The notes: generated from the sequence alone by a model not told the origin. A DNA stretch of 64,000 bases from an uncultured Desulfobacula sp. (GCA_963674905.2 CAXXXR010000002.1:2658588-2722587); one strand, 5' to 3'. Positions 6,644 through 39,629 are shown, counted from the stretch's first letter. A program made the numbers and translations.

Positions 6644-7483
6644 ATGACACATCCCGGGCAGATATTAAAGGCGAACAATTTGTATGCCGGCAAAGAGCTG
6701 GGCCAGAATTTTCTTTCAAATCCGGGTACGGCCGATATGATTGTCAAAAAGACCGGCATATCCCGGGATACCCGGGTCCTGGAAATCGGTTCCGGTCTGG
6801 GTGCCCTGACCATCCCCATTGCACGGGCCAGCGATCATGTGACCACGGTTGAAAAGGATTCCCGTCTCATCCCCCTTTTGCAGCAGGAACTGGAAACCCA
6901 GGGTCTGACCCATGTCAAGGTCATCAATCAGGACGTGTTAAAACTGGATCTTTGTGAAATTGCCCAAGACAAAAAGCTTGTGGTCATTGGAAATCTTCCC
7001 TATAATATTTCCTCCCAAATTTTGTTCAGGCTGGTTGAAAACAGAGCGTGTATTGATACGGCGTTTCTGATGTTTCAACGGGAACTGGCCAAACGGATTA
7101 TTGCACTGCCCGGGGGAAAAGAGTACTCAAGGCTGTCTGCCGTGGTTCAATATGCCGCTCAGATCAGCCTTACGGCAACTATCGGGCCCTCGTCTTTTTT
7201 TCCCAGGCCTGAAGTGGACTCCAGTATTTTAAGATTCAAATTTTTTGAGCCCGGGCCATTGAGTTTGGACGAAGAAAAGATGCTGTTCAATGTGATCAAG
7301 GCGGCTTTTTCAAAACGAAGAAAGTCGTTAAAAAACTCCATGGTGGGCAAGGAGTTTGACTTTGAAAAAGAATTTATTGTCCAGGCCCTGGAACAGGCTG
7401 GAATAGATCCGGCCAGACGGGCTGAAACCCTTACCGTGGAGGAGTTTATATCTCTTGCCCGGGCCGTATGGTCGACAAGCTGA
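6644..7483 (+). CDS. rsmA: 16S rRNA (A1518/A1519) dimethyltransferase
   Basis: LGQNFL, LEIGSGLG, GNLPYNISS, MFQRE, FFPRPEVDS and RRAETL motifs. Confidence 0.96.
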   Translation: MTHPGQILKANNLYAGKELGQNFLSNPGTADMIVKKTGISRDTRVLEIGSGLGALTIPIARASDHVTTVEKDSRLIPLLQQELETQGLTHVKVINQDVLKLDLCEIAQDKKLVVIGNLPYNISSQILFRLVENRACIDTAFLMFQRELAKRIIALPGGKEYSRLSAVVQYAAQISLTATIGPSSFFPRPEVDSSILRFKFFEPGPLSLDEEKMLFNVIKAAFSKRRKSLKNSMVGKEFDFEKEFIVQALEQAGIDPARRAETLTVEEFISLARAVWSTS

Positions 7484-7496
7484 AGGAAAATTTAAG

Positions 7497-8939
7497 ATGA
7501 CGATGAGAATTTCCATAGACAATCTGATTGAAATTGTGAAGGGCGGCGGAAAAGTCAAGACCGGTGTGGATGTGTATAACTCAAAGAGTATCCTCCTGCT
7601 GGACAAGGATGTTCTTGTGGAAAAGGTAAAAATTCTCGAGATTATCAAAGAAAGCGGCATCAACTCGATTCCGGTGAATGCCGCCTCAAACGGTGGTCTC
7701 TGGGACGAAAAAGGGAATATGATTCAGATGGGGGCAGACGGGATGGTTGATCTGGATGCCCAGACAAGCCCTGCTTCTGGGGATACTGAAACAGAAGAAG
7801 AGGAACCCGTCCATGCCTTTCCCGATACCGCAGCCAATGAAATCGAGATGCGGCTCCATGAAATTGAAGAGATAAAACAGGAAGCCGGTAAAAAATACAA
7901 TACCGCAAAAACAAGCATTAAAAAAGTGCTCACAGACATCAAAAGTACAGGCGGTGAATTTGACTTTGATGAAGTCCAGAACAATGTTTCAGACCTGGTT
8001 GATTTCCTGGTGGTGGCGGATAATCCCTTTGCCTATCTGACCCAGGAGCTTTTTTCCTATGATGATTATCTGTACAATCACTGCATCAATGTGTGCACCA
8101 TTGGAACGGCGGTGGTCAACCGGTTTAATACCAGTTTTTCCCACATTGTCGATGATTTGATCAACGGCCATTCCGCCGATATTTATAATCCCTTTGAAAA
8201 GTCAGGCAAGAAACAGGAAAATTCATTTACCTGCTATTATGCCGATGATCTGAGTGATATCTCCCTGGGGTTTTTTCTTCACGATATCGGGAAAATCATC
8301 GTTCCCGACGAGGTGCTGAACAAAGAGGGGCGGCTGACTCCGGCTGAATTTGAACAGGTCAAGAGACATTCCTATGAACATGGTGTGAACCTTCTGGACA
8401 AGAACAAGCTGAAGAATTCCGTAATCCGGAACATCGTTAAATACCATCATGCCCCCCTGTACGAGGGGGAAGAACGGTGCTATCCTCTGGATAAAAAGCA
8501 TACCCAGATCCCTTTGTATGCCAGAATCTGCAAGCTGGCGGATATTTACGATGCCATGACATCCAAGCGGTGCTATAAAGAGGCCATCAACCCCATTTCA
8601 GTGGTGACCCGTTTGTTCAGGTCCTATGCCAAAAAAGACAGGATGCTTCAGTATATCCTCCACGCCTTTGTCAAGAGTATCGGGATCTATCCCCCGGGCA
8701 GTATCGTGTACCTGAGAAACGGTCAGATGGCCTATGTCCTTGAAAGTGCCGGGCCCATTGTTCTGCCCTTTACCGACGGAGACGAAAAGACCCTGACCCA
8801 AAAGCCTGATCCCATCAATGTCGGTTCACCGGGCATTGACGAACTGACCATGGTGGACAACAGAAGAAGCGTGAAAACCCCCAAAGACGTATATGAAATT
8901 CTTCCCCCATATATCAAAAAAATAACCGAAAGACCCTGA
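7497..8939 (+). CDS. HD-GYP domain protein (c-di-GMP phosphodiesterase-like)
   Basis: YLYNHCINV, LHDIGK, HH...CYP (GYP variant), LADIYDAMTSKRCYKEA and GIYPPGS; ATG 7497 chosen from its RBS. Confidence 0.85.
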   Translation: MTMRISIDNLIEIVKGGGKVKTGVDVYNSKSILLLDKDVLVEKVKILEIIKESGINSIPVNAASNGGLWDEKGNMIQMGADGMVDLDAQTSPASGDTETEEEEPVHAFPDTAANEIEMRLHEIEEIKQEAGKKYNTAKTSIKKVLTDIKSTGGEFDFDEVQNNVSDLVDFLVVADNPFAYLTQELFSYDDYLYNHCINVCTIGTAVVNRFNTSFSHIVDDLINGHSADIYNPFEKSGKKQENSFTCYYADDLSDISLGFFLHDIGKIIVPDEVLNKEGRLTPAEFEQVKRHSYEHGVNLLDKNKLKNSVIRNIVKYHHAPLYEGEERCYPLDKKHTQIPLYARICKLADIYDAMTSKRCYKEAINPISVVTRLFRSYAKKDRMLQYILHAFVKSIGIYPPGSIVYLRNGQMAYVLESAGPIVLPFTDGDEKTLTQKPDPINVGSPGIDELTMVDNRRSVKTPKDVYEILPPYIKKITERP

Positions 8940-20198: not shown

Positions 20199-21443
20199 AT
20201 GAAAATGGCTGAATTTCCTTTCCTGCCCCAACCCCTGTCCGGGATTGCCCTGAAGTTTTTCCGCAGTGGAAAGGGCCTCATTCCCACGGATCAAAAAGGG
20301 ATTTTCATCACCCTGTTTTTTGCGATTTTTTCCACCGTGACCGGGGTGGGCATCGTGGTGCCGCTGCTGCCGGTGTATGCCAATGATCTGGGAGCCACCG
20401 GCATATACGTGGGTATGATATTCGGATCATTTTCCATCTCCAGAACCCTGCTGCTGCCCTATTTCGGAAGGCTTTCCGACCAGAAGGGCAGAAAGCCCTT
20501 TATTGTGACCGGCCTGTTTGTCTATACCCTGATCTCCATTGCATTTGTATTTTCAAAAAACGTGGAAACTCTTATCGGACTCAGGTTTATCCAGGGGGCG
20601 GCCTCAGCCATGATCATGCCTGTGGTCCAGGCCTATGTGGGAGAGATCACCCCCAAAGGTTCGGAAGGGTATTCCATGGGTCTGTTCAATCTGTCCATGT
20701 TTTTGAGCCTGAGCCTGGGCCCCCTGATGGGGGGTGTCATCAAAGACATCTGGTCCCTGGATGCCGCCTTTGTCTGCATGGGTGTCCTGTCCGGTGTGGG
20801 ACTGGTCCTGTGTGCCGTTTTCCTTCCCCCCAGGTCCCGGGAACAGGTCAAGACTTCGGCAAAGGGAGTGGTTTCCTGGTTCCATATTTTAAACGACCGG
20901 GATCTTGTGGCCATCTTTTTGTTCCGTTACGCCTACACCGCCTGCATCGGCGTGATCTGGTGTTTTCTGCCCCTGTTTGCCGACCGGGAATTCGGTCTTT
21001 CCGGTTCCCTCACCGGGGTCCTGGTCATGCTCGGGGTTTTTGTGTCCGGGATTCTCCAACTGCCCATGGGAGTTGTGGCAGACCGGTCCGACAAGCGGAT
21101 GATGATCGTTGCCGGGGGAATTCTGTCCAGCATCGGCATGGTCCTGCCGTTCTGGGCCGCTTCTTTTTCTGACCTGGTGATTGCCGTTTCAATTTTTGGT
21201 GTGGGCGGGGGGATTTCCATGCCCGCCATTATGGCCTGTGCCGTGATCAAGGGAGATGAACGAGAAGCCATGGGATCGGTGATTTCGGTCATGACCGTGG
21301 CCCACAGCCTGGGCATGCTCACAGGGTCCATGGCCGCCGGGCTGGCCATGGATTTTTTGAGCCTCCGCCTGTCTTTTCCCTGCGGAATGCTCATCATGGT
21401 CGTGGGCACTCTGGTGGTCCTGCTCTGTCTGAATAAAAAATAA
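20199..21443 (+). CDS. MFS transporter (DHA1/TetA-like)
   Basis: About 12 hydrophobic segments; motif A GRLSDQKGRK and a second-half DRSDKR. Confidence 0.88.
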   Translation: MKMAEFPFLPQPLSGIALKFFRSGKGLIPTDQKGIFITLFFAIFSTVTGVGIVVPLLPVYANDLGATGIYVGMIFGSFSISRTLLLPYFGRLSDQKGRKPFIVTGLFVYTLISIAFVFSKNVETLIGLRFIQGAASAMIMPVVQAYVGEITPKGSEGYSMGLFNLSMFLSLSLGPLMGGVIKDIWSLDAAFVCMGVLSGVGLVLCAVFLPPRSREQVKTSAKGVVSWFHILNDRDLVAIFLFRYAYTACIGVIWCFLPLFADREFGLSGSLTGVLVMLGVFVSGILQLPMGVVADRSDKRMMIVAGGILSSIGMVLPFWAASFSDLVIAVSIFGVGGGISMPAIMACAVIKGDEREAMGSVISVMTVAHSLGMLTGSMAAGLAMDFLSLRLSFPCGMLIMVVGTLVVLLCLNKK

Positions 21444-21504
21444 AACTCAAAAAAAACTGCCGGAGATTTGCCGACCAACGTCTTTTTATAGTCCGGTCGG
21501 GCAT

Positions 21505-21658
21505 GGGTTGCGACTCAGATGATTGGTCATTCCTACAGGGTCTAAATTCCGTTCCGCTGACCGGGAAAATTAGTTTTATTCAAAAACAAATTCCCGGTCT
21601 TGCGCTCCACTTCATCAAAACCCTGTACGGAAGGCCAATAAATTATTCCCTGCAACTC
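21505..21658. mobile_element. 154-bp MITE with ~37-bp imperfect terminal IRs and a 3-bp target duplication (CAT)
   Basis: Left end gggttgc...attggtcattcctacagggt; right end reverse-complements to gagttgc...attggccttccgtacagggt; cat at 21502-21504 and 21659-21661. Confidence 0.7.
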
Positions 21659-22000
21659 CATGCCCCGCCCTCCTCGATAGTTTTTACGATATTCAGGATA
21701 TCAAAAATGCGCTTATATGCCCTTCCTCAACTCCAATAAAGAACATTCTGAAATATGTTTTCTGATTAAATTATATTTTCACCAAAGGTGATCTTCAATA
21801 TCTTTACAGGTTTCGGTTGTTAAGAATCGAATAGTGTAACGCCAAAGCCCCGAATCAGTGACAAAATACTGTAACGGGTATATCCCGCGACCAAACCCCG
21901 CCAATAGCAAAAAAATATACCCCGCTATCCCGTCGACTGTTCCCAAGCTGCCGGTTTGCGTATGTTTTTTGTCCAGCTTTGAACGCTGGAGAATTTATGA

Positions 22001-22303
22001 TGGCAAAAAATATGCAGTCCGGCATGTCAGAAAGAACAGCATCGAAGACAGTCTGAAAAATGGAACAGGAAGAATAAGGCGTATTTCAAAAGCAACTATT
22101 TGGCTGATAAGATTGATGCGATTGAGCAAAAGGAACAATCGAAAGATCCACCCATTATTGCACAGCAATCAGATCAGACAAAACCGATTTTACCAATGGA
22201 TGTCATCCTGGCTCAGTGGGGGAAGAGGTCTGAGGTCATCATCCGATATCTGGTCTTCCAGGTCACTCGCCATGTTCGTATCCGGTATAGAAAAAATGCC
22301 TGA
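22001..22303 (+). pseudogene. Remnant of a small Cys-rich protein (WQKICSPACQKEQHRRQSEKWNRKNKAYFKSNYL...), no intact start
   Basis: Open frame after the TGA at 21998. The CxxxCQ...W..KN..YF..NYL pattern resembles small ORFs I recall in deltaproteobacterial IS21-linked elements (unverified). Confidence 0.35.
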
Positions 22304-22586
22304 TAACATCAGGTCGTTTATCCAAAGCAAAGTCCCGACATTCGTTTTCAGATATTCAAAAACAGTGGAAAGAAAATATTTTGCAAACACCTGTCCGTAT
22401 TGCAATGTTATTTACGGCGACTTTTTTCTGCATGATGAAGCTGGGATCCCTTTTTTCCCCGCTGATGAGGACGACGCCAAGTTGCTATATATCAAAGAGA
22501 TTCCTATAAACGGACCCTTTGAAATCGAAGGTGGGGCAGGATCCGGAACGGGAGAAATGATTCTGGATCATGCAATACGAGTATGA
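22272..22586 (+). pseudogene. Probable 5'-truncated gene: C-terminal part resembling DUF5710-associated proteins
   Basis: FRYSKTV...YFANTCPYC...GDFFLHDE.G.PFFP is protein-like, whereas the upstream part of ORF 21858-22586 is not. Confidence 0.45.
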
Positions 22587-22725
22587 GTGCAACAACCATT
22601 AAAAATCTCACAATTATAATTTGTTTTGAACGATCAATTTCATAAACATTGACAAAAAAGCATGCCTTATGTAATTCATTTCAGATGAACCTTCTTTATA
22701 CGCCACAAAATGAGAAAGTATTCTA

Positions 22726-25710
22726 ATGATATCAAATAATTCTCAAATTAGTTTTAATGCGCTTCTTGAAAAATTTGAGATGATATCTGAAGGATACAAG
22801 TCTCCGAGTCTATTGTTACCCAATGACCTTCATTTGTCGGATAGTGACAAAATTATTTTAGAACAGGCGGGGAAATATAATGTTGATGCGGTATATGTAA
22901 GGCAATTCAATGATGGACGAACCTCTATCCCACAAATATACATATATGATTTTATAAAAAACCCCAGGAAAGATAATGAGATAACAGAACTGTATCGAAA
23001 AATTTGGAACTCCGGGCATGTTCCTCTTATTTTTTTATTTTTTAAAACAGAAATTCAAATATTAACCTGTTTAAAACAACCAGATTTCGATCCTAAAACC
23101 GGAAATCTTGCATATAGCCTATTTGAAAAGATTCATTTGGCGTCGAAAGCAAAAAAAGAGTTGGATAAATTTAAACGATTATCTGCTAGACGGTTTGATA
23201 ATGGCTCATTCTGGACTGACTCAAAATATAAAAGCAAATTTTCGTTAAAAGAGACTGCCTATATAAAGCTTTTAACTGAACTCAAAACAGCCAAACGAGA
23301 TATCATTAAAAAAGAGATTCTGGATGAGAATCTTACAAAAAAACTTCTTGTGATGTCGATTCTTGTCAAATACCTTGAAGAGAGAAAGGATAAAGACGGT
23401 AACAAAGTTTTTCCCAAAAGGTTTTTTATCAAATTTTCAAATGGGGAGGATAATTTTTTAGATGTCCTTCGTAAAAAAGGAGGATGCCTTCGATTATTTG
23501 ATGAACTGAGCAGCAAGAATAGTTTTAATGGAGAAATTTTTGCCTGGAACGGCAAAAAAGAAAGAGAGCAGTTAGCCGAAGCAGACTTGAACTCTTTTGC
23601 CGAATTTTTTGAAGGGCGGCTTGATAATGGTCAGTACACTTTTTGGCGGCTTTATTCATTTAATGATTTACCCATCGAGCTCATCAGTAATATCTATGAG
23701 GAATTTTTAGATAAAAAAGCCGGAGTCGTTTACACGCCGCCTTATTTGGTCAATTTGCTTATCGACGAGCTACTGCCGTTGTCTGATTTCGGAAAAAAAG
23801 AATTTAAGGTGTTGGATCCTGCGTGTGGGTCAGGTATTTTCCTGGTGGCCGCATACAAAAGGATGATTCAGTGGTGGAAAATCCGCAACAATTGGGCCAA
23901 ACCTGATTCCCAGAACTTAAATGAACTAAAAGAAATTTTAAAAAATAACATTTTTGGTGTTGATATTCACGAAGAAGCCGTACGCTTAACGTTTTTCAGC
24001 CTTAGTTTGGTGCTTTTAGATGAATTGTCACCAAAGGTTATCTGGGAAAATTTAAAATTTGATAATCTTATTGGGAACAATTTCATCAGCAATGATTTTT
24101 TTGAACTAATTGAGAACGATTTACTAAAGCCGGAATTCGATCTTATTGTGGGGAATCCTCCCTTTGAATCAAAATTGACAGATAGCGCAGCAAGGATTGA
24201 AAACAAAAGACGCCGGACGTATCCAAAATTACCGGATAATCAAATCGCACTGCTTCTTCTGGACCAGTCTATCACCCTGTGCAAAGAAAATGCATCTCTT
24301 TGTTTGATAATGCCGTCAGGCCCCTTTTTATACAATACCAATTCTGCTGATTTTCGAACTTATTTTTTTAACAAGTATCATGTTCCGCAGCTAATTGATT
24401 TTACGTTCCTCAGCCAGGTCCTTTTTGAGAGCGCAAACGTGCCGGTCACAGCGGTTTTTGCAAAGAATCAAAAGCCTGATGAAACAGACATCCTTCATGT
24501 TACGGTCCGCAGGACAAAACCAGCCAAAGAAAAGCTCTACTTTGAATTGGACCACTATGATTTTCATAAGGTGCCTTTTAAGGACGCTTTAAAAAGCAGG
24601 CTTGTCTGGAAAGCCAATTTGCTGGGAGGCGGCAGGCTAAGGCAGCTTTTGGACAGACTGGAACCCATCCGAAGTTTTGGTGCATTTCTATCTGAAAAAG
24701 AGCAGAATGACGGGTGGAAAATCGCAGAGGGATTTATCGTTGGAAATAAAGAGAAAATTGATACGCTTGTTAAATTGAAAGAAAAAGCGCCGGAATTATC
24801 TGATGAGGAAAACCTGAAGTTGAAGGAACTTGAAAAGAAGTTTCAACCAGCAGAATACCTTACCGGGAAAAATACACTGCCAACGGATGCATTCACAGAA
24901 GATGGCATCAATGACAATGAAATCTACAAACTTGAAAACAAATATTTTTATCGGAGTAGCAAAAAGAATAAAGAAATTTTTGAAGCCCCTCATCTTCTTA
25001 TAAAGGAAGGCGTATCAGAGACTTCAATTCCAGTAATATTTCGGGAAGACGACCTTTCCTTCAGGCATGAAATAATCGGTATTCATGCTCCGAATCAAGC
25101 AGAGGCTCTCAAAAAAATAGAAAACCGTTTCAGGAATAACAGAACATACCTTTTTCATGTTGCCGGATTCAGCAGCAGGTATATGATCACCAGAGCTACG
25201 GCCTTTCTAAAAAATGATATTGAATGCCTGCCTTACCCTGAGGATGAGACAGAGCTTAATCTATCGGATCTCGAACAAATTCTTATGGATGATGTGCTTG
25301 ATTATATGCTTGATTTCAGGAGAAAGGGCGAAAATGCGGACTCGGAAAAACCGGTAACACAGGGCCAGTTGAAACTATTTTCCAATGTCTATTGTAAGGT
25401 TTTGAATTCTGTTTATAAAAACATCAAACCGTATCACTCTTTTGAAACAAAATCATATATCTGCTTTCCTTTTTATTTTGATGATCCTTCATCCATTGCG
25501 CTTCAAAAAACCAAGGGGCTTGAAGACGATCTTGATGAACTGATCAAAAATAATGTGAGTTCTAATTCAAGAATCATTCGAATGCTTCGAATTTATGAAA
25601 ATAATATTATTTATCTTATTAAACCTAAGCAGACGCGCTATTGGTTACGTTCGGTTGCAATTCGGGATGCTGACGAAACCTTTTCTGATTTAGTGAACCA
25701 AGGGTTTTAA
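22726..25710 (+). CDS. Large N6-adenine DNA methyltransferase (gamma class, type IIG/HsdM-like, probable fused specificity domain)
   Basis: ISNIYE, GVVYTPPYLV, motif I VLDPACGSGIFL, FGVDI and motif IV IVGNPPF; 994 aa; AT-rich. Confidence 0.9.
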   Translation: MISNNSQISFNALLEKFEMISEGYKSPSLLLPNDLHLSDSDKIILEQAGKYNVDAVYVRQFNDGRTSIPQIYIYDFIKNPRKDNEITELYRKIWNSGHVPLIFLFFKTEIQILTCLKQPDFDPKTGNLAYSLFEKIHLASKAKKELDKFKRLSARRFDNGSFWTDSKYKSKFSLKETAYIKLLTELKTAKRDIIKKEILDENLTKKLLVMSILVKYLEERKDKDGNKVFPKRFFIKFSNGEDNFLDVLRKKGGCLRLFDELSSKNSFNGEIFAWNGKKEREQLAEADLNSFAEFFEGRLDNGQYTFWRLYSFNDLPIELISNIYEEFLDKKAGVVYTPPYLVNLLIDELLPLSDFGKKEFKVLDPACGSGIFLVAAYKRMIQWWKIRNNWAKPDSQNLNELKEILKNNIFGVDIHEEAVRLTFFSLSLVLLDELSPKVIWENLKFDNLIGNNFISNDFFELIENDLLKPEFDLIVGNPPFESKLTDSAARIENKRRRTYPKLPDNQIALLLLDQSITLCKENASLCLIMPSGPFLYNTNSADFRTYFFNKYHVPQLIDFTFLSQVLFESANVPVTAVFAKNQKPDETDILHVTVRRTKPAKEKLYFELDHYDFHKVPFKDALKSRLVWKANLLGGGRLRQLLDRLEPIRSFGAFLSEKEQNDGWKIAEGFIVGNKEKIDTLVKLKEKAPELSDEENLKLKELEKKFQPAEYLTGKNTLPTDAFTEDGINDNEIYKLENKYFYRSSKKNKEIFEAPHLLIKEGVSETSIPVIFREDDLSFRHEIIGIHAPNQAEALKKIENRFRNNRTYLFHVAGFSSRYMITRATAFLKNDIECLPYPEDETELNLSDLEQILMDDVLDYMLDFRRKGENADSEKPVTQGQLKLFSNVYCKVLNSVYKNIKPYHSFETKSYICFPFYFDDPSSIALQKTKGLEDDLDELIKNNVSSNSRIIRMLRIYENNIIYLIKPKQTRYWLRSVAIRDADETFSDLVNQGF

Positions 25711-25712
25711 TA

Positions 25713-26420
25713 ATGTTCAATGAAAAATATGAATCAGAAGTATCTGGCAGATTATCCGGACCTTACATACCTGAGTTTGACACATCGATCAAAGAGGTGA
25801 TTCTATTCATAGAAAAAAATCTCATTATTTTTTCTGAATCTATTGCGGTGTCCCAAATTCAAAATGAAAAAGGCCTCACACAAACGCTTGTCCAAATTCT
25901 CAATTTAAACGCCATGGGAGGATTTTCACCCTTTTGGTTCGAAAAAGAGTATATGGAAAATCCAGACAGGGGCGACAGCCCCTCGGTTGATATAGGTACG
26001 CTAAAAGTTGATAGTAGCGGTAATGTTATCAATTCAGTAGTTCTTGGAAATAAATCCTTTTATTCGATCGAGGCCAAAAGATTGCCCACACCAGGCAGTA
26101 ATAGAGAAAAAGAATATGTAATCGGTTCAAAAAACAATGGTGGAATTGAGCGCTTCAAAACCGGGAGACATGGATCTGAGCTAAAACACAGTGGAATGAT
26201 TGGGTTTGTTCAGAAAAATGATTTTAAATACTGGAATAAAAAAATTAACGAGTGGATTGTTGAGTTGACACAGACAAATAGCGAATCTGATATAAACTGG
26301 TATGAATCTGAGATTTTAATTCCTCAACATTTTAAAAAGACCACAGCTCAATTGATTTCGAAACACGAAAGAATGAACAAATCATACATATCTTTGTGTC
26401 ATTTATGGGTGTGCTTATGA
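25713..26420 (+). CDS. Hypothetical protein with a PD-(D/E)xK nuclease-like signature
   Basis: NEKGLT...E...SVDIG...IEAKRL, then EYV, GGIERFK.G.H and GMIGFV; starts 2 bp after the MTase stop. Confidence 0.65.
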   Translation: MFNEKYESEVSGRLSGPYIPEFDTSIKEVILFIEKNLIIFSESIAVSQIQNEKGLTQTLVQILNLNAMGGFSPFWFEKEYMENPDRGDSPSVDIGTLKVDSSGNVINSVVLGNKSFYSIEAKRLPTPGSNREKEYVIGSKNNGGIERFKTGRHGSELKHSGMIGFVQKNDFKYWNKKINEWIVELTQTNSESDINWYESEILIPQHFKKTTAQLISKHERMNKSYISLCHLWVCL

Positions 26421-26445: not shown

Positions 26446-27122
26446 ATGAATCAGTATCAAACAGATTATTCCAATGAAGTTCACCAACTAATTGTAACAC
26501 CATCAAAACATTTTTTCGTCACACGCAATGGCATTTTAAAATATCAAAAGAAACCCTTTGAAATAAAGCTTGAAAATTGTAACAATTTCAAAAAGACGCA
26601 TATAATTCATTATCTTATCAGAGATCATTTTAGCGGGTTGGTTTACTACGAGACATGTACATCTGATGCAGCAATCCCAATTCATGAATTTCTATTTAGA
26701 TCCTGGACTAAAAAGGAAAACAACCTTTCTATGGAATGCCTTCCTGTATGACTATCCCTAAAAATGTCCAACTATTTTTCCCTGGTTTGGTGAATTTTGT
26801 TGAAACATTGGGTATTGATTTCATAAAAGTCACAAGCGGTTTTCAAGGGGGTGTTCGCGACATAAGAACGATAGAAGATGAATTAAGATGCGCTGGATTG
26901 TTTTTGGGGAATCCTGAACAATTTCAGACTGAATTACCTTTTGAACTGATTTTAGAAAAATCATACGAAATCTGTTCCAGGCTTTCAGATAATTTTTATC
27001 GAAAACCGTCAAAAAAAGAAACTTGGTTCTCGGGCTTTGGTTCTGAACAAAAAATAAACATCCCCGAATCTTTAGAAATATTCAAAACTACATATCAAAG
27101 CATCGTGGAATCAGAATTTTGA
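26446..27122 (+). pseudogene. Frameshifted hypothetical gene (ORFs 26446-26751 + 26736-27122), integrase-core/RNase H-like
   Basis: Adding one base in the A-runs at 26710-26720 joins ...HYLIRDHFSGLVYYE...FLFRSWTKK to (E/G)KQPFYGMPSCMTIPK...; the second frame opens right after TAA at 26709. Confidence 0.6.
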
Positions 27123-27215: not shown

Positions 27216-27253
27216 TAATCACGCTTGACGTTAATCACGCAATGCGTTAATAT
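27216..27253 (+). promoter_or_regulatory. higBA promoter with probable operator
   Basis: TTGACG (27225-27230), 17 bp, TAATAT (27248-27253); direct repeat taatcacgc x2 (27216, 27232); palindrome acgca-a-tgcgt (27237-27247). Confidence 0.7.
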
Positions 27254-27259
27254 ATACCC

Positions 27260-27538
27260 ATGATAAAATCTTTCAAATGCAAATATACAAAAGCACTTTC
27301 GAAAGGCCAACGTGTTAAGCAGTTCGTAAATATTGAAAATGTTGCACGGCGTAAACTTAGGCAGCTTGAAATTGCTGGTCGAATTGAAGATTTGAGAGTC
27401 CCACCCGGAAATCACCTTGAAATGCTCAAAGGTTACCGTTCCGGCCAACACAGTATTCGAATAAACGATCAGTGGCGCCTTTGCTTCTGCTGGACGGATG
27501 CAGGTGCGGAAAATGTGGAGATAGTTGATTACCACTGA
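27260..27538 (+). CDS. higB: RelE/ParE-family toxin HigB
   Basis: MIKSFK, ARRKL..L, DLRVPPGNHLE.LKG.RSGQHSIRINDQWRLCF.W and VEIVDYH. Confidence 0.95.
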   Translation: MIKSFKCKYTKALSKGQRVKQFVNIENVARRKLRQLEIAGRIEDLRVPPGNHLEMLKGYRSGQHSIRINDQWRLCFCWTDAGAENVEIVDYH

Positions 27539-27550
27539 GGAGGATGTATT

Positions 27551-27862
27551 ATGAATAAGCTTAAACCGATTACACCGGGCGAGATTCTTTTGGAAGAATT
27601 TCTCAAGCCTATGGGTATCAGTCAATATCGTTTAGCCAAGGAAATAGACGTTCCTGCTCAGCGCATCAGTGAAATTGTTGCCGGGAAGCGCTCGGTTACT
27701 GCTGATACAGATTTACGGCTATGTCGATTTTTTGGTTTATCCAATGGGTACTGGCTTCGAGCACAAGCTGCTCACGATACGGAAATAGCCGAGCGAACCC
27801 TGAATGATATCATCATAAAAATCAGACCCTGGTCTGAGCATGTTGCCCAGCCAAACGCTTGA
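27551..27862 (+). CDS. higA: HigA addiction-module antitoxin (HTH)
   Basis: PITPGEILLEEFLKPMGISQYRLAK, RISEIVAGKR.VTADT.LRL.RFFG and W...Q..HD; GAGGAGG RBS. Confidence 0.95.
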   Translation: MNKLKPITPGEILLEEFLKPMGISQYRLAKEIDVPAQRISEIVAGKRSVTADTDLRLCRFFGLSNGYWLRAQAAHDTEIAERTLNDIIIKIRPWSEHVAQPNA

Positions 27863-27973: not shown

Positions 27974-28182
27974 CTTTTGTTCTATAAACACACATTAAAT
28001 TCAGACCTCCTGACATCAGGCATTTTTAAATGCAAAATATGCCGCCTGAAAAACAAGTTTGGTTCAATTTTTTAAAACCTCACCTCTCGCAGATGAAAAC
28101 ATTGACGTGTCGAGGAATAAAGATATTCCAAGGGATATGGAAAATCCAGAGATGTCACGGCGGTGCTGTAAAAAGCCTCCTT

Positions 28183-39526: not shown

Positions 39527-39629
39527 GAGTTGCCTGGAAAAATAAAACTCAAAAAAGTCTGCTGGATATTTGCCGGTCCTTTTCATCAAGATCCTGTACG
39601 GAACGCCAATAAATCATTCACTGCAACTC
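39527..39629. mobile_element. Shorter relative of the 21505-21658 MITE
   Basis: Begins gagttgc and ends gcaactc; 39592-39629 matches the 21621-21658 right IR with about 4 substitutions; no target duplication seen. Confidence 0.55.

Follow-up and report, generated by a model that had tools for sequence, protein, structure and literature searches.

An obligately linked methyltransferase and small putative nuclease from Desulfobacula: a candidate two-subunit restriction-modification system

A 64,000-nucleotide stretch of an uncultured Desulfobacula sp. genome (GCA_963674905.2 CAXXXR010000002.1:2658588-2722587; referred to here, at its full length, as the window) carries two adjacent genes coding for a large N6-adenine DNA methyltransferase (MTase) with its own target recognition domain (TRD) and a small putative nuclease. 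The pair probably constitutes a two-subunit restriction-modification (R-M) system of split type IIG/IIL design, in which the MTase-TRD protein guides a nuclease subunit acting in trans. The proposal draws on an obligate linkage of the two genes in distant bacteria, on a TRD that is exchanged as a cassette within otherwise near-identical MTases, and on a partner protein that stays the same when the TRD changes.

Organization and linkage of the gene pair

Open reading frame (ORF) calling in the window gives proteins of 994 and 235 amino acids (aa) on the plus strand (Table 1), at exactly the coordinates of a first-pass annotation. The junction reads TTT TAA TA ATG, leaving 2 nt between the MTase stop codon and the start of the small gene. 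A Shine-Dalgarno-like AAGGG motif lies within the 3' end of the MTase gene, 5' of the small gene, and no promoter- or terminator-like signals above chance were found between the two genes.

The two genes are obligately linked. A scan for small-protein loci, with a 10-sequence alignment as the query and one genome per species, returned 80 loci, three of which are cut by contig ends; in all 77 that are evaluable, a full-length MTase homologue lies directly upstream on the same strand. Among metagenome loci chosen by the MTase, the small gene is downstream in 71 of the 73 evaluable cases, and the exceptions are a truncated MTase (L112) and a solitary one (L153). The pairing is far from chance, and the genomic linkage supposed by the first-pass annotation holds from both sides. 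The distance from the MTase stop codon to the small-gene start is -4 to +6 nt in 72 of the 77 loci, with codons that overlap or abut, which is consistent with translational coupling. When the flanking ORFs of the 80 loci are clustered, no gene other than these two proves to be conserved; the clusters next in rank consist of antisense shadow ORFs within the MTase gene.

Pairs occur in Desulfobacterota, Bacteroidota, Acidobacteriota/Aminicenantes, Clostridia, Atribacterota, Armatimonadota, Cloacimonadota, Campylobacterota, Lentisphaerota, and Verrucomicrobiota, as well as in a Limnohabitans and an Acholeplasmataceae, and near-identical copies are present in D. phenolica and in the cultured Desulfobacula toluolica Tol2 (DSM 7467), the complete genome of which encodes the pair as CCK78361 and CCK78362, at 90% identity or more. 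Twenty alphaproteobacterial plasmids, including Agrobacterium pTi and Labrenzia plasmids, also carry the pair, annotated as "N-6 DNA methylase" and "hypothetical protein." Searches of 50,697 phage genomes and of IMG/VR contigs did not find it.

The large protein and its N-terminal domain

The 994-aa protein matches Pfam families Eco57I (1.4e-20), N6_Mtase (1.5e-19), and MmeI_Mtase (2.7e-8), all above the Pfam cutoffs, and motifs I (DPACGSG) and IV (NPPF), described as intact in the first-pass annotation, are present and invariant across 35 MTase homologues. Its AlphaFold model (predicted local distance difference test [pLDDT] score, 83.7; predicted template modeling [pTM] score, 0.82) has BpuSI (3s1s) as the top Foldseek match (E 1e-15, 978 columns), with further matches to CamA, BrxX/PglX, DrdV (7lo5), and MmeI (5hr4), these five together having E values of 1e-15 to 4e-11, and to M.BseCI; those to MmeI, BpuSI, DrdV, and CamA span both the MTase domain and the TRD. 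Because the model matches BpuSI, DrdV, and MmeI, the protein is collinear with type IIG/IIL enzymes, with an N-terminal domain, a helical connector, a gamma-class N6-adenine MTase domain, a TRD, and a C-terminal domain (Table 1). Toward the C-terminus, residues 951 to 994 have top-residue frequencies of 0.69 to 0.77, and K966, P967, W973, L974, S976, A978, R980, D981, A982, D983, and T985 are invariant.

The N-terminal domain is where a type IIG enzyme would carry its nuclease. The match to the PADLOC type IIG (REase_MTase_IIG) profile PDLC03603 (5.6e-42) starts only at residue 142, which corresponds to profile position 109. The domain is conserved as a fold and is predicted by AlphaFold2 (AF2) to consist of helices (H) and strands (E) in the order H39-49, E55-59, E68-75, H83-96, E101-105, and E109-114. 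The lack of a clear PD-(D/E)xK motif here, remarked on previously, is borne out by conservation: residues 1 to 145 contain no invariant D, E, or K (D54, 44%; D75, 88%; E46, 81%; K107, 52%; E109, 34%), and only L14, A48, Y57, Q70, and P100 are at least 90% conserved. Since no acidic residue or lysine is invariant, the domain is probably not an active nuclease. An MTase profile searched against PDB sequences matches in the catalytic core only, with no match for the N-terminal domain. A GIY-YIG-like fold was considered for the beta-beta-alpha-beta order and the conserved Y57 and was dropped for lack of a Pfam hit and of a conserved Arg or Glu.

The small partner protein

The small protein has the candidate catalytic residues E52, D93 (in SVDIG), and E120-A-K122 (in IEAKRL). 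The D-x(n)-EAKR pattern had been picked out in the first-pass annotation; conservation of D93, E120, and K122, together with E52, is 100% across 64 complete pairs and likewise across 36 diverse homologues. The AF2 model (pLDDT, 83.7; pTM, 0.83) begins this region with H52-69, which has E52 at its start, followed by E74-81, E91-98 (with D93), and E117-124 (with E120 and K122); after the ExK strand come H144-149, E159-166, a helix at 171-188, and a three-stranded C-terminal sheet. An alpha-beta-beta-beta-alpha-beta arrangement fits the model at the level of secondary-structure order. The same order of elements and placement of motifs is canonical for PD-(D/E)xK enzymes, in which the E, D, and ExK residues sit on helix 1, strand 2, and strand 3 of such a core, as reportedly described by Steczkiewicz et al. 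(2012). Motif and predicted topology together suggest that the small protein is a PD-(D/E)xK-type nuclease.

Conservation extends well past these residues. R131, E134, Y135, G143, E146-R-F-K149, H153, W174, N179, and W181 are invariant, as are W196, S216, H230, and W232 in the C-terminal part (residues 125 to 235 correspond to window positions 26085-26417). The Trp/His cluster among them may form a base-binding or docking surface. The family is large and coherent: a word-indexed search gives 213 clusters at 90% identity, every one "hypothetical," and an exhaustive profile search gives 945 clusters at 50% identity that form a single group. The best 150 of these 945 are all stand-alone proteins of 123 to 266 aa, mostly 210 to 260.

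Comparison by hhalign with the N-terminal domain, TRD, and C-terminal domain of the MTase shows no homology, and an origin of the small protein as a detached copy of an MTase domain was rejected. At L112, a 208-aa ORF with a textbook nuclease-like PDY...IIEAKK motif and no Pfam family (7257-7883, minus strand) adjoins the degraded MTase copy; it was considered as a reference nuclease and set aside because it has no annotated family.

Exchange of the TRD with a constant small protein

Domain-wise identities were compared over 115 complete pairs. In many pairs of loci, MTase residues 1 to 630 and 901 to 994 are 90 to 100% identical, and residues ~631 to 900 are only 13 to 50% identical, with sharp boundaries. 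The small proteins do not follow these changes. In the TRD-swapped locus pairs L015/L020, L013/L020, L065/L119, and L077/L119 they are 85 to 97% identical, and across 66 close pairs, with TRD identities from 0.30 to 0.95, TRD identity is uncorrelated with small-protein identity (Spearman coefficients, -0.11 and -0.01). Roseivirga ehrenbergii KMM 6017 and a Reichenbachiella sp. exemplify relatives with swapped TRDs. With a TRD type defined by at least 50% identity, the 115 pairs have 51 TRD types on 18 MTase frames, and one small-protein cluster (at least 75% identity, six loci) accompanies five TRD types.

Judged by these sequence comparisons, the cassette-like MTase TRD appears to determine specificity, to which the small protein appears neutral. 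Because the TRD changes and the small protein does not, the latter is unlikely to have a matching specificity of its own; a nuclease that is specificity-neutral and yet spares methylated host sites would be directed to its targets by the MTase-TRD subunit. Diversification of the TRD on this scale is typical of R-M systems selected for new specificities, and it disfavors a purely regulatory orphan MTase.

Alleles of the small gene can also be swapped, whichever way the MTase frame varies. Between L119 and L138, and between L065 and L127, the MTase frames are 83 to 89% identical and the small proteins are ~30% identical over the first 120 residues.

Table 1. Features of the gene pair in the window (positions counted from the first nucleotide of the window; L002 and L003 are loci of close relatives)
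Feature	Position	Strand	Basis
Upstream leader, presumed promoter region, traveling with the module	22638..22725	+	DNA similarity to L002 and L003 begins at 22638-22648
MTase ORF	22726..25710	+	ORF calling
MTase N-terminal alpha/beta domain, residues 1-140, at the position of the type IIG nuclease domain	22726..23145	+	Type IIG profiles align only from residue 142
Helical connector, residues ~141-300	23146..23625	+	All-helical in AF2 model; aligned to PADLOC PDLC03603/03623
Gamma-class N6-adenine MTase catalytic domain, residues ~301-630	23626..24615	+	Pfam matches, invariant motifs, Foldseek
Motif I, DPACGSG, residues 364-370	23815-23835	+	Invariant
Motif IV, NPPF, residues 477-480	24154-24165	+	Invariant
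Swappable TRD, residues ~631-900	24616..25425	+	13-50% identity between proteins 90-100% identical on either side
Constant C-terminal domain, residues 901-994, and stop codon	25426..25710	+	Among the best-conserved MTase parts; 97-100% identical across TRD-swapped pairs
Small partner, 235 aa, putative PD-(D/E)xK-type nuclease subunit	25713..26420	+	Invariant motif and predicted secondary-structure order
Candidate catalytic residue E52	25866-25868	+	Invariant
Candidate catalytic residue D93	25989-25991	+	Invariant
Candidate catalytic residues E120-A-K122	26070-26078	+	E120 and K122 invariant

Genomic context

The pair lies in an AT-rich island (GC content of 0.34 to 0.42 over ~22 to 28 kb, versus ~0.53 around it), which is flanked by a transporter gene and an ABC-ATPase operon, both housekeeping. 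No HsdS or HsdR ORFs are present in the island, as the first-pass annotation had said, and a HigB/HigA toxin-antitoxin pair lies downstream of the module in the same island (27260-27862; Pfam HigB-like_toxin, 4.6e-18, and HTH_3, 4.7e-9). The typical defense context claimed for the locus holds for the AT-rich island and the toxin-antitoxin pair; the attC sites that were part of the claim were not found, there being no attC-like repeat array or family at 21.3 to 28.4 kb in a repeat search (no dedicated attC model was run), and the context across relatives is modest. Neighbors in 33 other loci are mixed: besides a few defense genes (SoFic/Fic, PtuA/GajA/AriA-like ATPases, and MADS components) and a few integrase and conjugation genes, many are housekeeping genes.

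The window resembles its closest relatives at the DNA level over 22638-~27126 only, and because the similarity stops there, with differing flanks on either side, the gene-pair unit is mobile. No promoter match above chance is present in the leader, and no tRNA, Rfam element, or convincing direct repeats were found at the island borders. Short ORFs within 26446-27122 (101 and 128 aa), just downstream of the pair, have no family match and are pieces of one frameshifted, decaying gene, which is also present, each time cut differently, at 8811-9422 in L002 and 7168-7461 in L003. It accompanies the module in the closest Desulfobacula-like relatives only, and as decaying fragments with so confined a distribution these ORFs were rejected as a third component.

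Other features of the locus are noted for completeness. The HigB-like toxin (92 aa) and HTH antitoxin (103 aa) are intact and are absent from relatives' loci. An ORF 5' of the module (21858-22586) codes for a C-terminal CPYC motif (TCPYCNVIYGDFFLHDE); it matches no family, and the relatives do not share it. The island has at its left edge a dispersed short repeat whose ends (21440-21473 and 21611-21640) are found again as one contiguous stretch at 39542-39611; around ~21540 the assembly depth is ~7x background, and assembly contigs break at 21522-21572 and at 27245. A 24-nt inverted repeat (83% complementary; 22292-22315 and 28004-28027) brackets most of the island, and each arm is a small hairpin (CCTGAT..ATCAGG), which may be a chance occurrence or may mark the island ends. 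The other AT-rich patch in the window, at 39 to 43 kb, is an ordinary hybrid sensor kinase gene. Among the plasmid-borne relatives, the pair of Agrobacterium fabrum pTiAg57 (L161) is beside a SIR2-family gene with two hypothetical genes, and that of a Labrenzia plasmid (L162) is beside a cluster of radical-SAM, 3'-5' exonuclease, AAA ATPase, and HD-domain genes; both neighborhoods possibly contain further defense genes.

Relationship to known systems

The large protein shares with the MmeI family (type IIL/IIG), BpuSI, and DrdV the same order of domains after the N-terminal domain (connector, gamma-class N6-adenine MTase, TRD, and constant C-terminal domain). The pair also resembles MmeI and type IIG enzymes in changing specificity by TRD variation and in having no separate MTase, HsdS, or ATPase. 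It departs from MmeI, BpuSI, and DrdV in two ways: the PD-ExK catalytic residues are missing from the N-terminal domain, which does not align with the nuclease part of type IIG profiles, and the candidate nuclease is not part of a single chain but an unrelated protein of 235 aa encoded separately. Because the defining feature, a fused nuclease, fails, the pair is not type IIG sensu stricto.

The closest precedent in logic is YeeA(DnmA)/YeeB/YeeC. Morgan et al. 2009 (PMC2731913) describe a helicase and a GIY-YIG protein as invariable neighbors of MmeI homologues without PD-ExK (YeeA type) and speculated that cleavage subunits encoded separately derive their specificity from the MmeI-like subunit. 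In both cases an MmeI-like MTase-TRD protein without PD-ExK is linked to a separate putative cleavage gene or genes, but YeeABC has three genes, including a DEAD-type helicase and a GIY-YIG nuclease, whereas the pair has two, no helicase, and a partner whose motif is D...ExK; Pfam gives no GIY-YIG match for the small protein, and no helicase gene is conserved across the 80 loci. The idea of split specificity has therefore already been published, and the pair differs from that precedent in its two-gene form, the absence of a helicase, and a different, unannotated partner family.

In type III Mod/Res and type IIB BcgI systems, the polypeptide bearing the nuclease likewise relies on another subunit for recognition. 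Res, however, has an SF2 (superfamily 2) ATPase and Mod is an MTase of a different class arrangement, and BcgI has its nuclease fused to the MTase with the specificity subunit separate, the reverse of the split proposed here. As for type I and type III systems generally, there is no HsdS, HsdR, or Res ORF in the window island and no conserved third gene. BREX PglX/BrxX is a structurally similar large MTase-TRD protein without nuclease activity, but NCBIfam PglX profiles score only 34 to 58 bits against cutoffs of 400 to 900, and no PglZ, BrxC, BrxL, or other BREX gene is conserved at these loci. The first-pass annotation did not recognize the pair as a named system; it is absent from PADLOC, NCBIfam, and Pfam, and no paper naming it was found in the literature, with REBASE and DefenseFinder outside the scope of the search, so that a prior listing there is possible.

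Proposed mechanism and alternatives

If the pair is a split type IIG/IIL system, the 994-aa protein would be an active N6-adenine MTase whose own C-terminal TRD reads a short, probably asymmetric sequence, so that host sites would be methylated. It would have a noncatalytic N-terminal domain in place of the type IIG nuclease, and the 235-aa protein, translated from the same operon right after the MTase, would bring the missing PD-(D/E)xK-type site (E52, D93, and E120-x-K122). The small protein would be recruited or licensed by MTase-TRD bound at an unmethylated site and would cut unmethylated DNA only then. Because there is no ATPase, cleavage would occur without translocation, near the site or at a fixed distance from it, and would probably need two bound complexes, as in MmeI. 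A plausible docking site in such a complex is the N-terminal domain or the ultraconserved C-terminal tail (residues 951 to 994), and the expected phenotype would be defense. It is possible, if somewhat doubtful, that the pair represents a widespread and uncatalogued class of two-component programmable R-M systems, in which a constant nuclease subunit of a new family is directed by an MTase with a cassette-exchanged TRD and docks on the silent N-terminal domain or the C-terminal tail. The fold of that constant subunit, with its many invariant aromatic and His residues, could, tentatively, be too divergent for Foldseek.

Several observations weigh against a split type IIG/IIL system. Single-sequence searches of the small protein against Pfam, PADLOC, NCBIfam, and the PDB give no match, nor do its profile against the PDB or 36 members searched individually against Pfam and PHROGs. 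Foldseek, the fold search that the first-pass annotation had recommended, has no significant match in the PDB (best E, 0.23) or BFVD (best E, 0.018); the PD-(D/E)xK proteins McrC, NucC, Cas4, DUF2800, and MmcB appear below threshold only. Because fold and profile searches are negative, the nuclease assignment reaches as far as motif and predicted topology carry it. The split type IIG arrangement suggested by the first-pass annotation thus gains from the two-way linkage, the lack of a third gene, and the TRD swaps, and is less secure in its trans-acting nuclease. No fusion of MTase and small protein is present in the best 150 of the 945 clusters, which leaves no Rosetta-stone evidence for a complex. 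Between L119 and L138 a divergent small-protein allele (~30% identity in the N-terminal half) sits on a near-identical frame (identity, 0.89), and this exchange implies a tolerant MTase/small-protein interface. The solitary MTase of L153 is intact, defense genes are a minority of neighbors across relatives, and a search for RNA support for cotranscription turned up DNA assemblies only. In the one analogue that has been studied, DnmA/YeeB/YeeC of B. subtilis, there was no restriction of plasmid DNA entering the cell (Nye et al. 2020, PMC7261158).

Among the alternatives, it is unlikely that the pair acts outside defense, with the small protein assisting an epigenetic MTase (for example, as a regulator, as a cofactor that binds DNA or reads its methylation, or as a dcm-vsr-like repair nuclease). 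Such a role would account for the lack of a significant fold or family match to any nuclease and for the many invariant residues past the D/E/K triad, some of which could form a base-binding pocket, and it has a parallel in the related DnmA, an MTase with regulatory effects for which restriction was not detected; a solitary MTase also exists. However, the invariant E...D...ExK set sits on the canonical strands, horizontal spread, plasmid carriage, and the AT-rich island also weigh against such a role, and regulatory orphan MTases normally keep one specificity, in contrast to the TRD swapping seen here. A repair nuclease is further disfavored because m6A (N6-methyladenine) poses no deamination-repair problem comparable to that of 5mC (5-methylcytosine). 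Quite unlikely is a guard or abortive-infection module, in which the MTase is a sensor or antitoxin-like partner and the small protein a latent toxic DNase or RNase, freed once the MTase is blocked by a phage anti-restriction protein or DNA mimic, much as PrrC is held by EcoprrI. Such a module would be expected to show both the strict one-to-one pairing, in which the MTase gene comes first, and a small protein that does not depend on TRD type, PglX-like MTases are known Ocr targets (8q56 and 9ex7 are among the MTase fold matches), and the window copy adjoins a toxin-antitoxin pair. But 51 TRD types in 115 pairs are a signature of selection on DNA sequence specificity, as in R-M systems, and a guard would have no need of such diversification; there is also no sign of toxicity or RNase character.

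An ordinary type II system, with a gamma-class MTase and a conventional type IIP or IIS restriction endonuclease (REase) that recognizes the same sequence alone, is highly improbable. The MTase does adjoin a PD-(D/E)xK-like ORF of ~235 aa, a typical type II REase size, and an MTase-then-REase order would delay restriction upon entry into a new host. Yet an independent REase would cut host DNA whenever the TRD is replaced (13 to 50% identity) and the small protein remains 85 to 97% identical. Type II REases of different specificity normally share no detectable similarity (PMC2731913), unlike this one coherent group of 945 clusters, and a gene order that is the same in all loci, with tight spacing in 72 of 77, is also at odds with such a system. 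A nuclease subunit directed by the MTase-TRD protein remains the probable reading of the pair.

Significance

Should that reading be wrong, the strict linkage of these MTases to a partner of unknown function would still point to a new MTase-associated function. If it is right, it would add a missing R-M architecture, an MTase-TRD protein with a helicase-free nuclease in trans, and would give a function to a family of ~945 clusters (50% identity) called "hypothetical" in every database. With specificity and cleavage on separate polypeptides and a TRD that is naturally swapped, the pair would also be an attractive starting point for engineering restriction enzymes with new specificities, a goal pursued with MmeI. 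PADLOC, DefenseFinder, and REBASE could then recognize thousands of loci at which an orphan MTase is currently scored.

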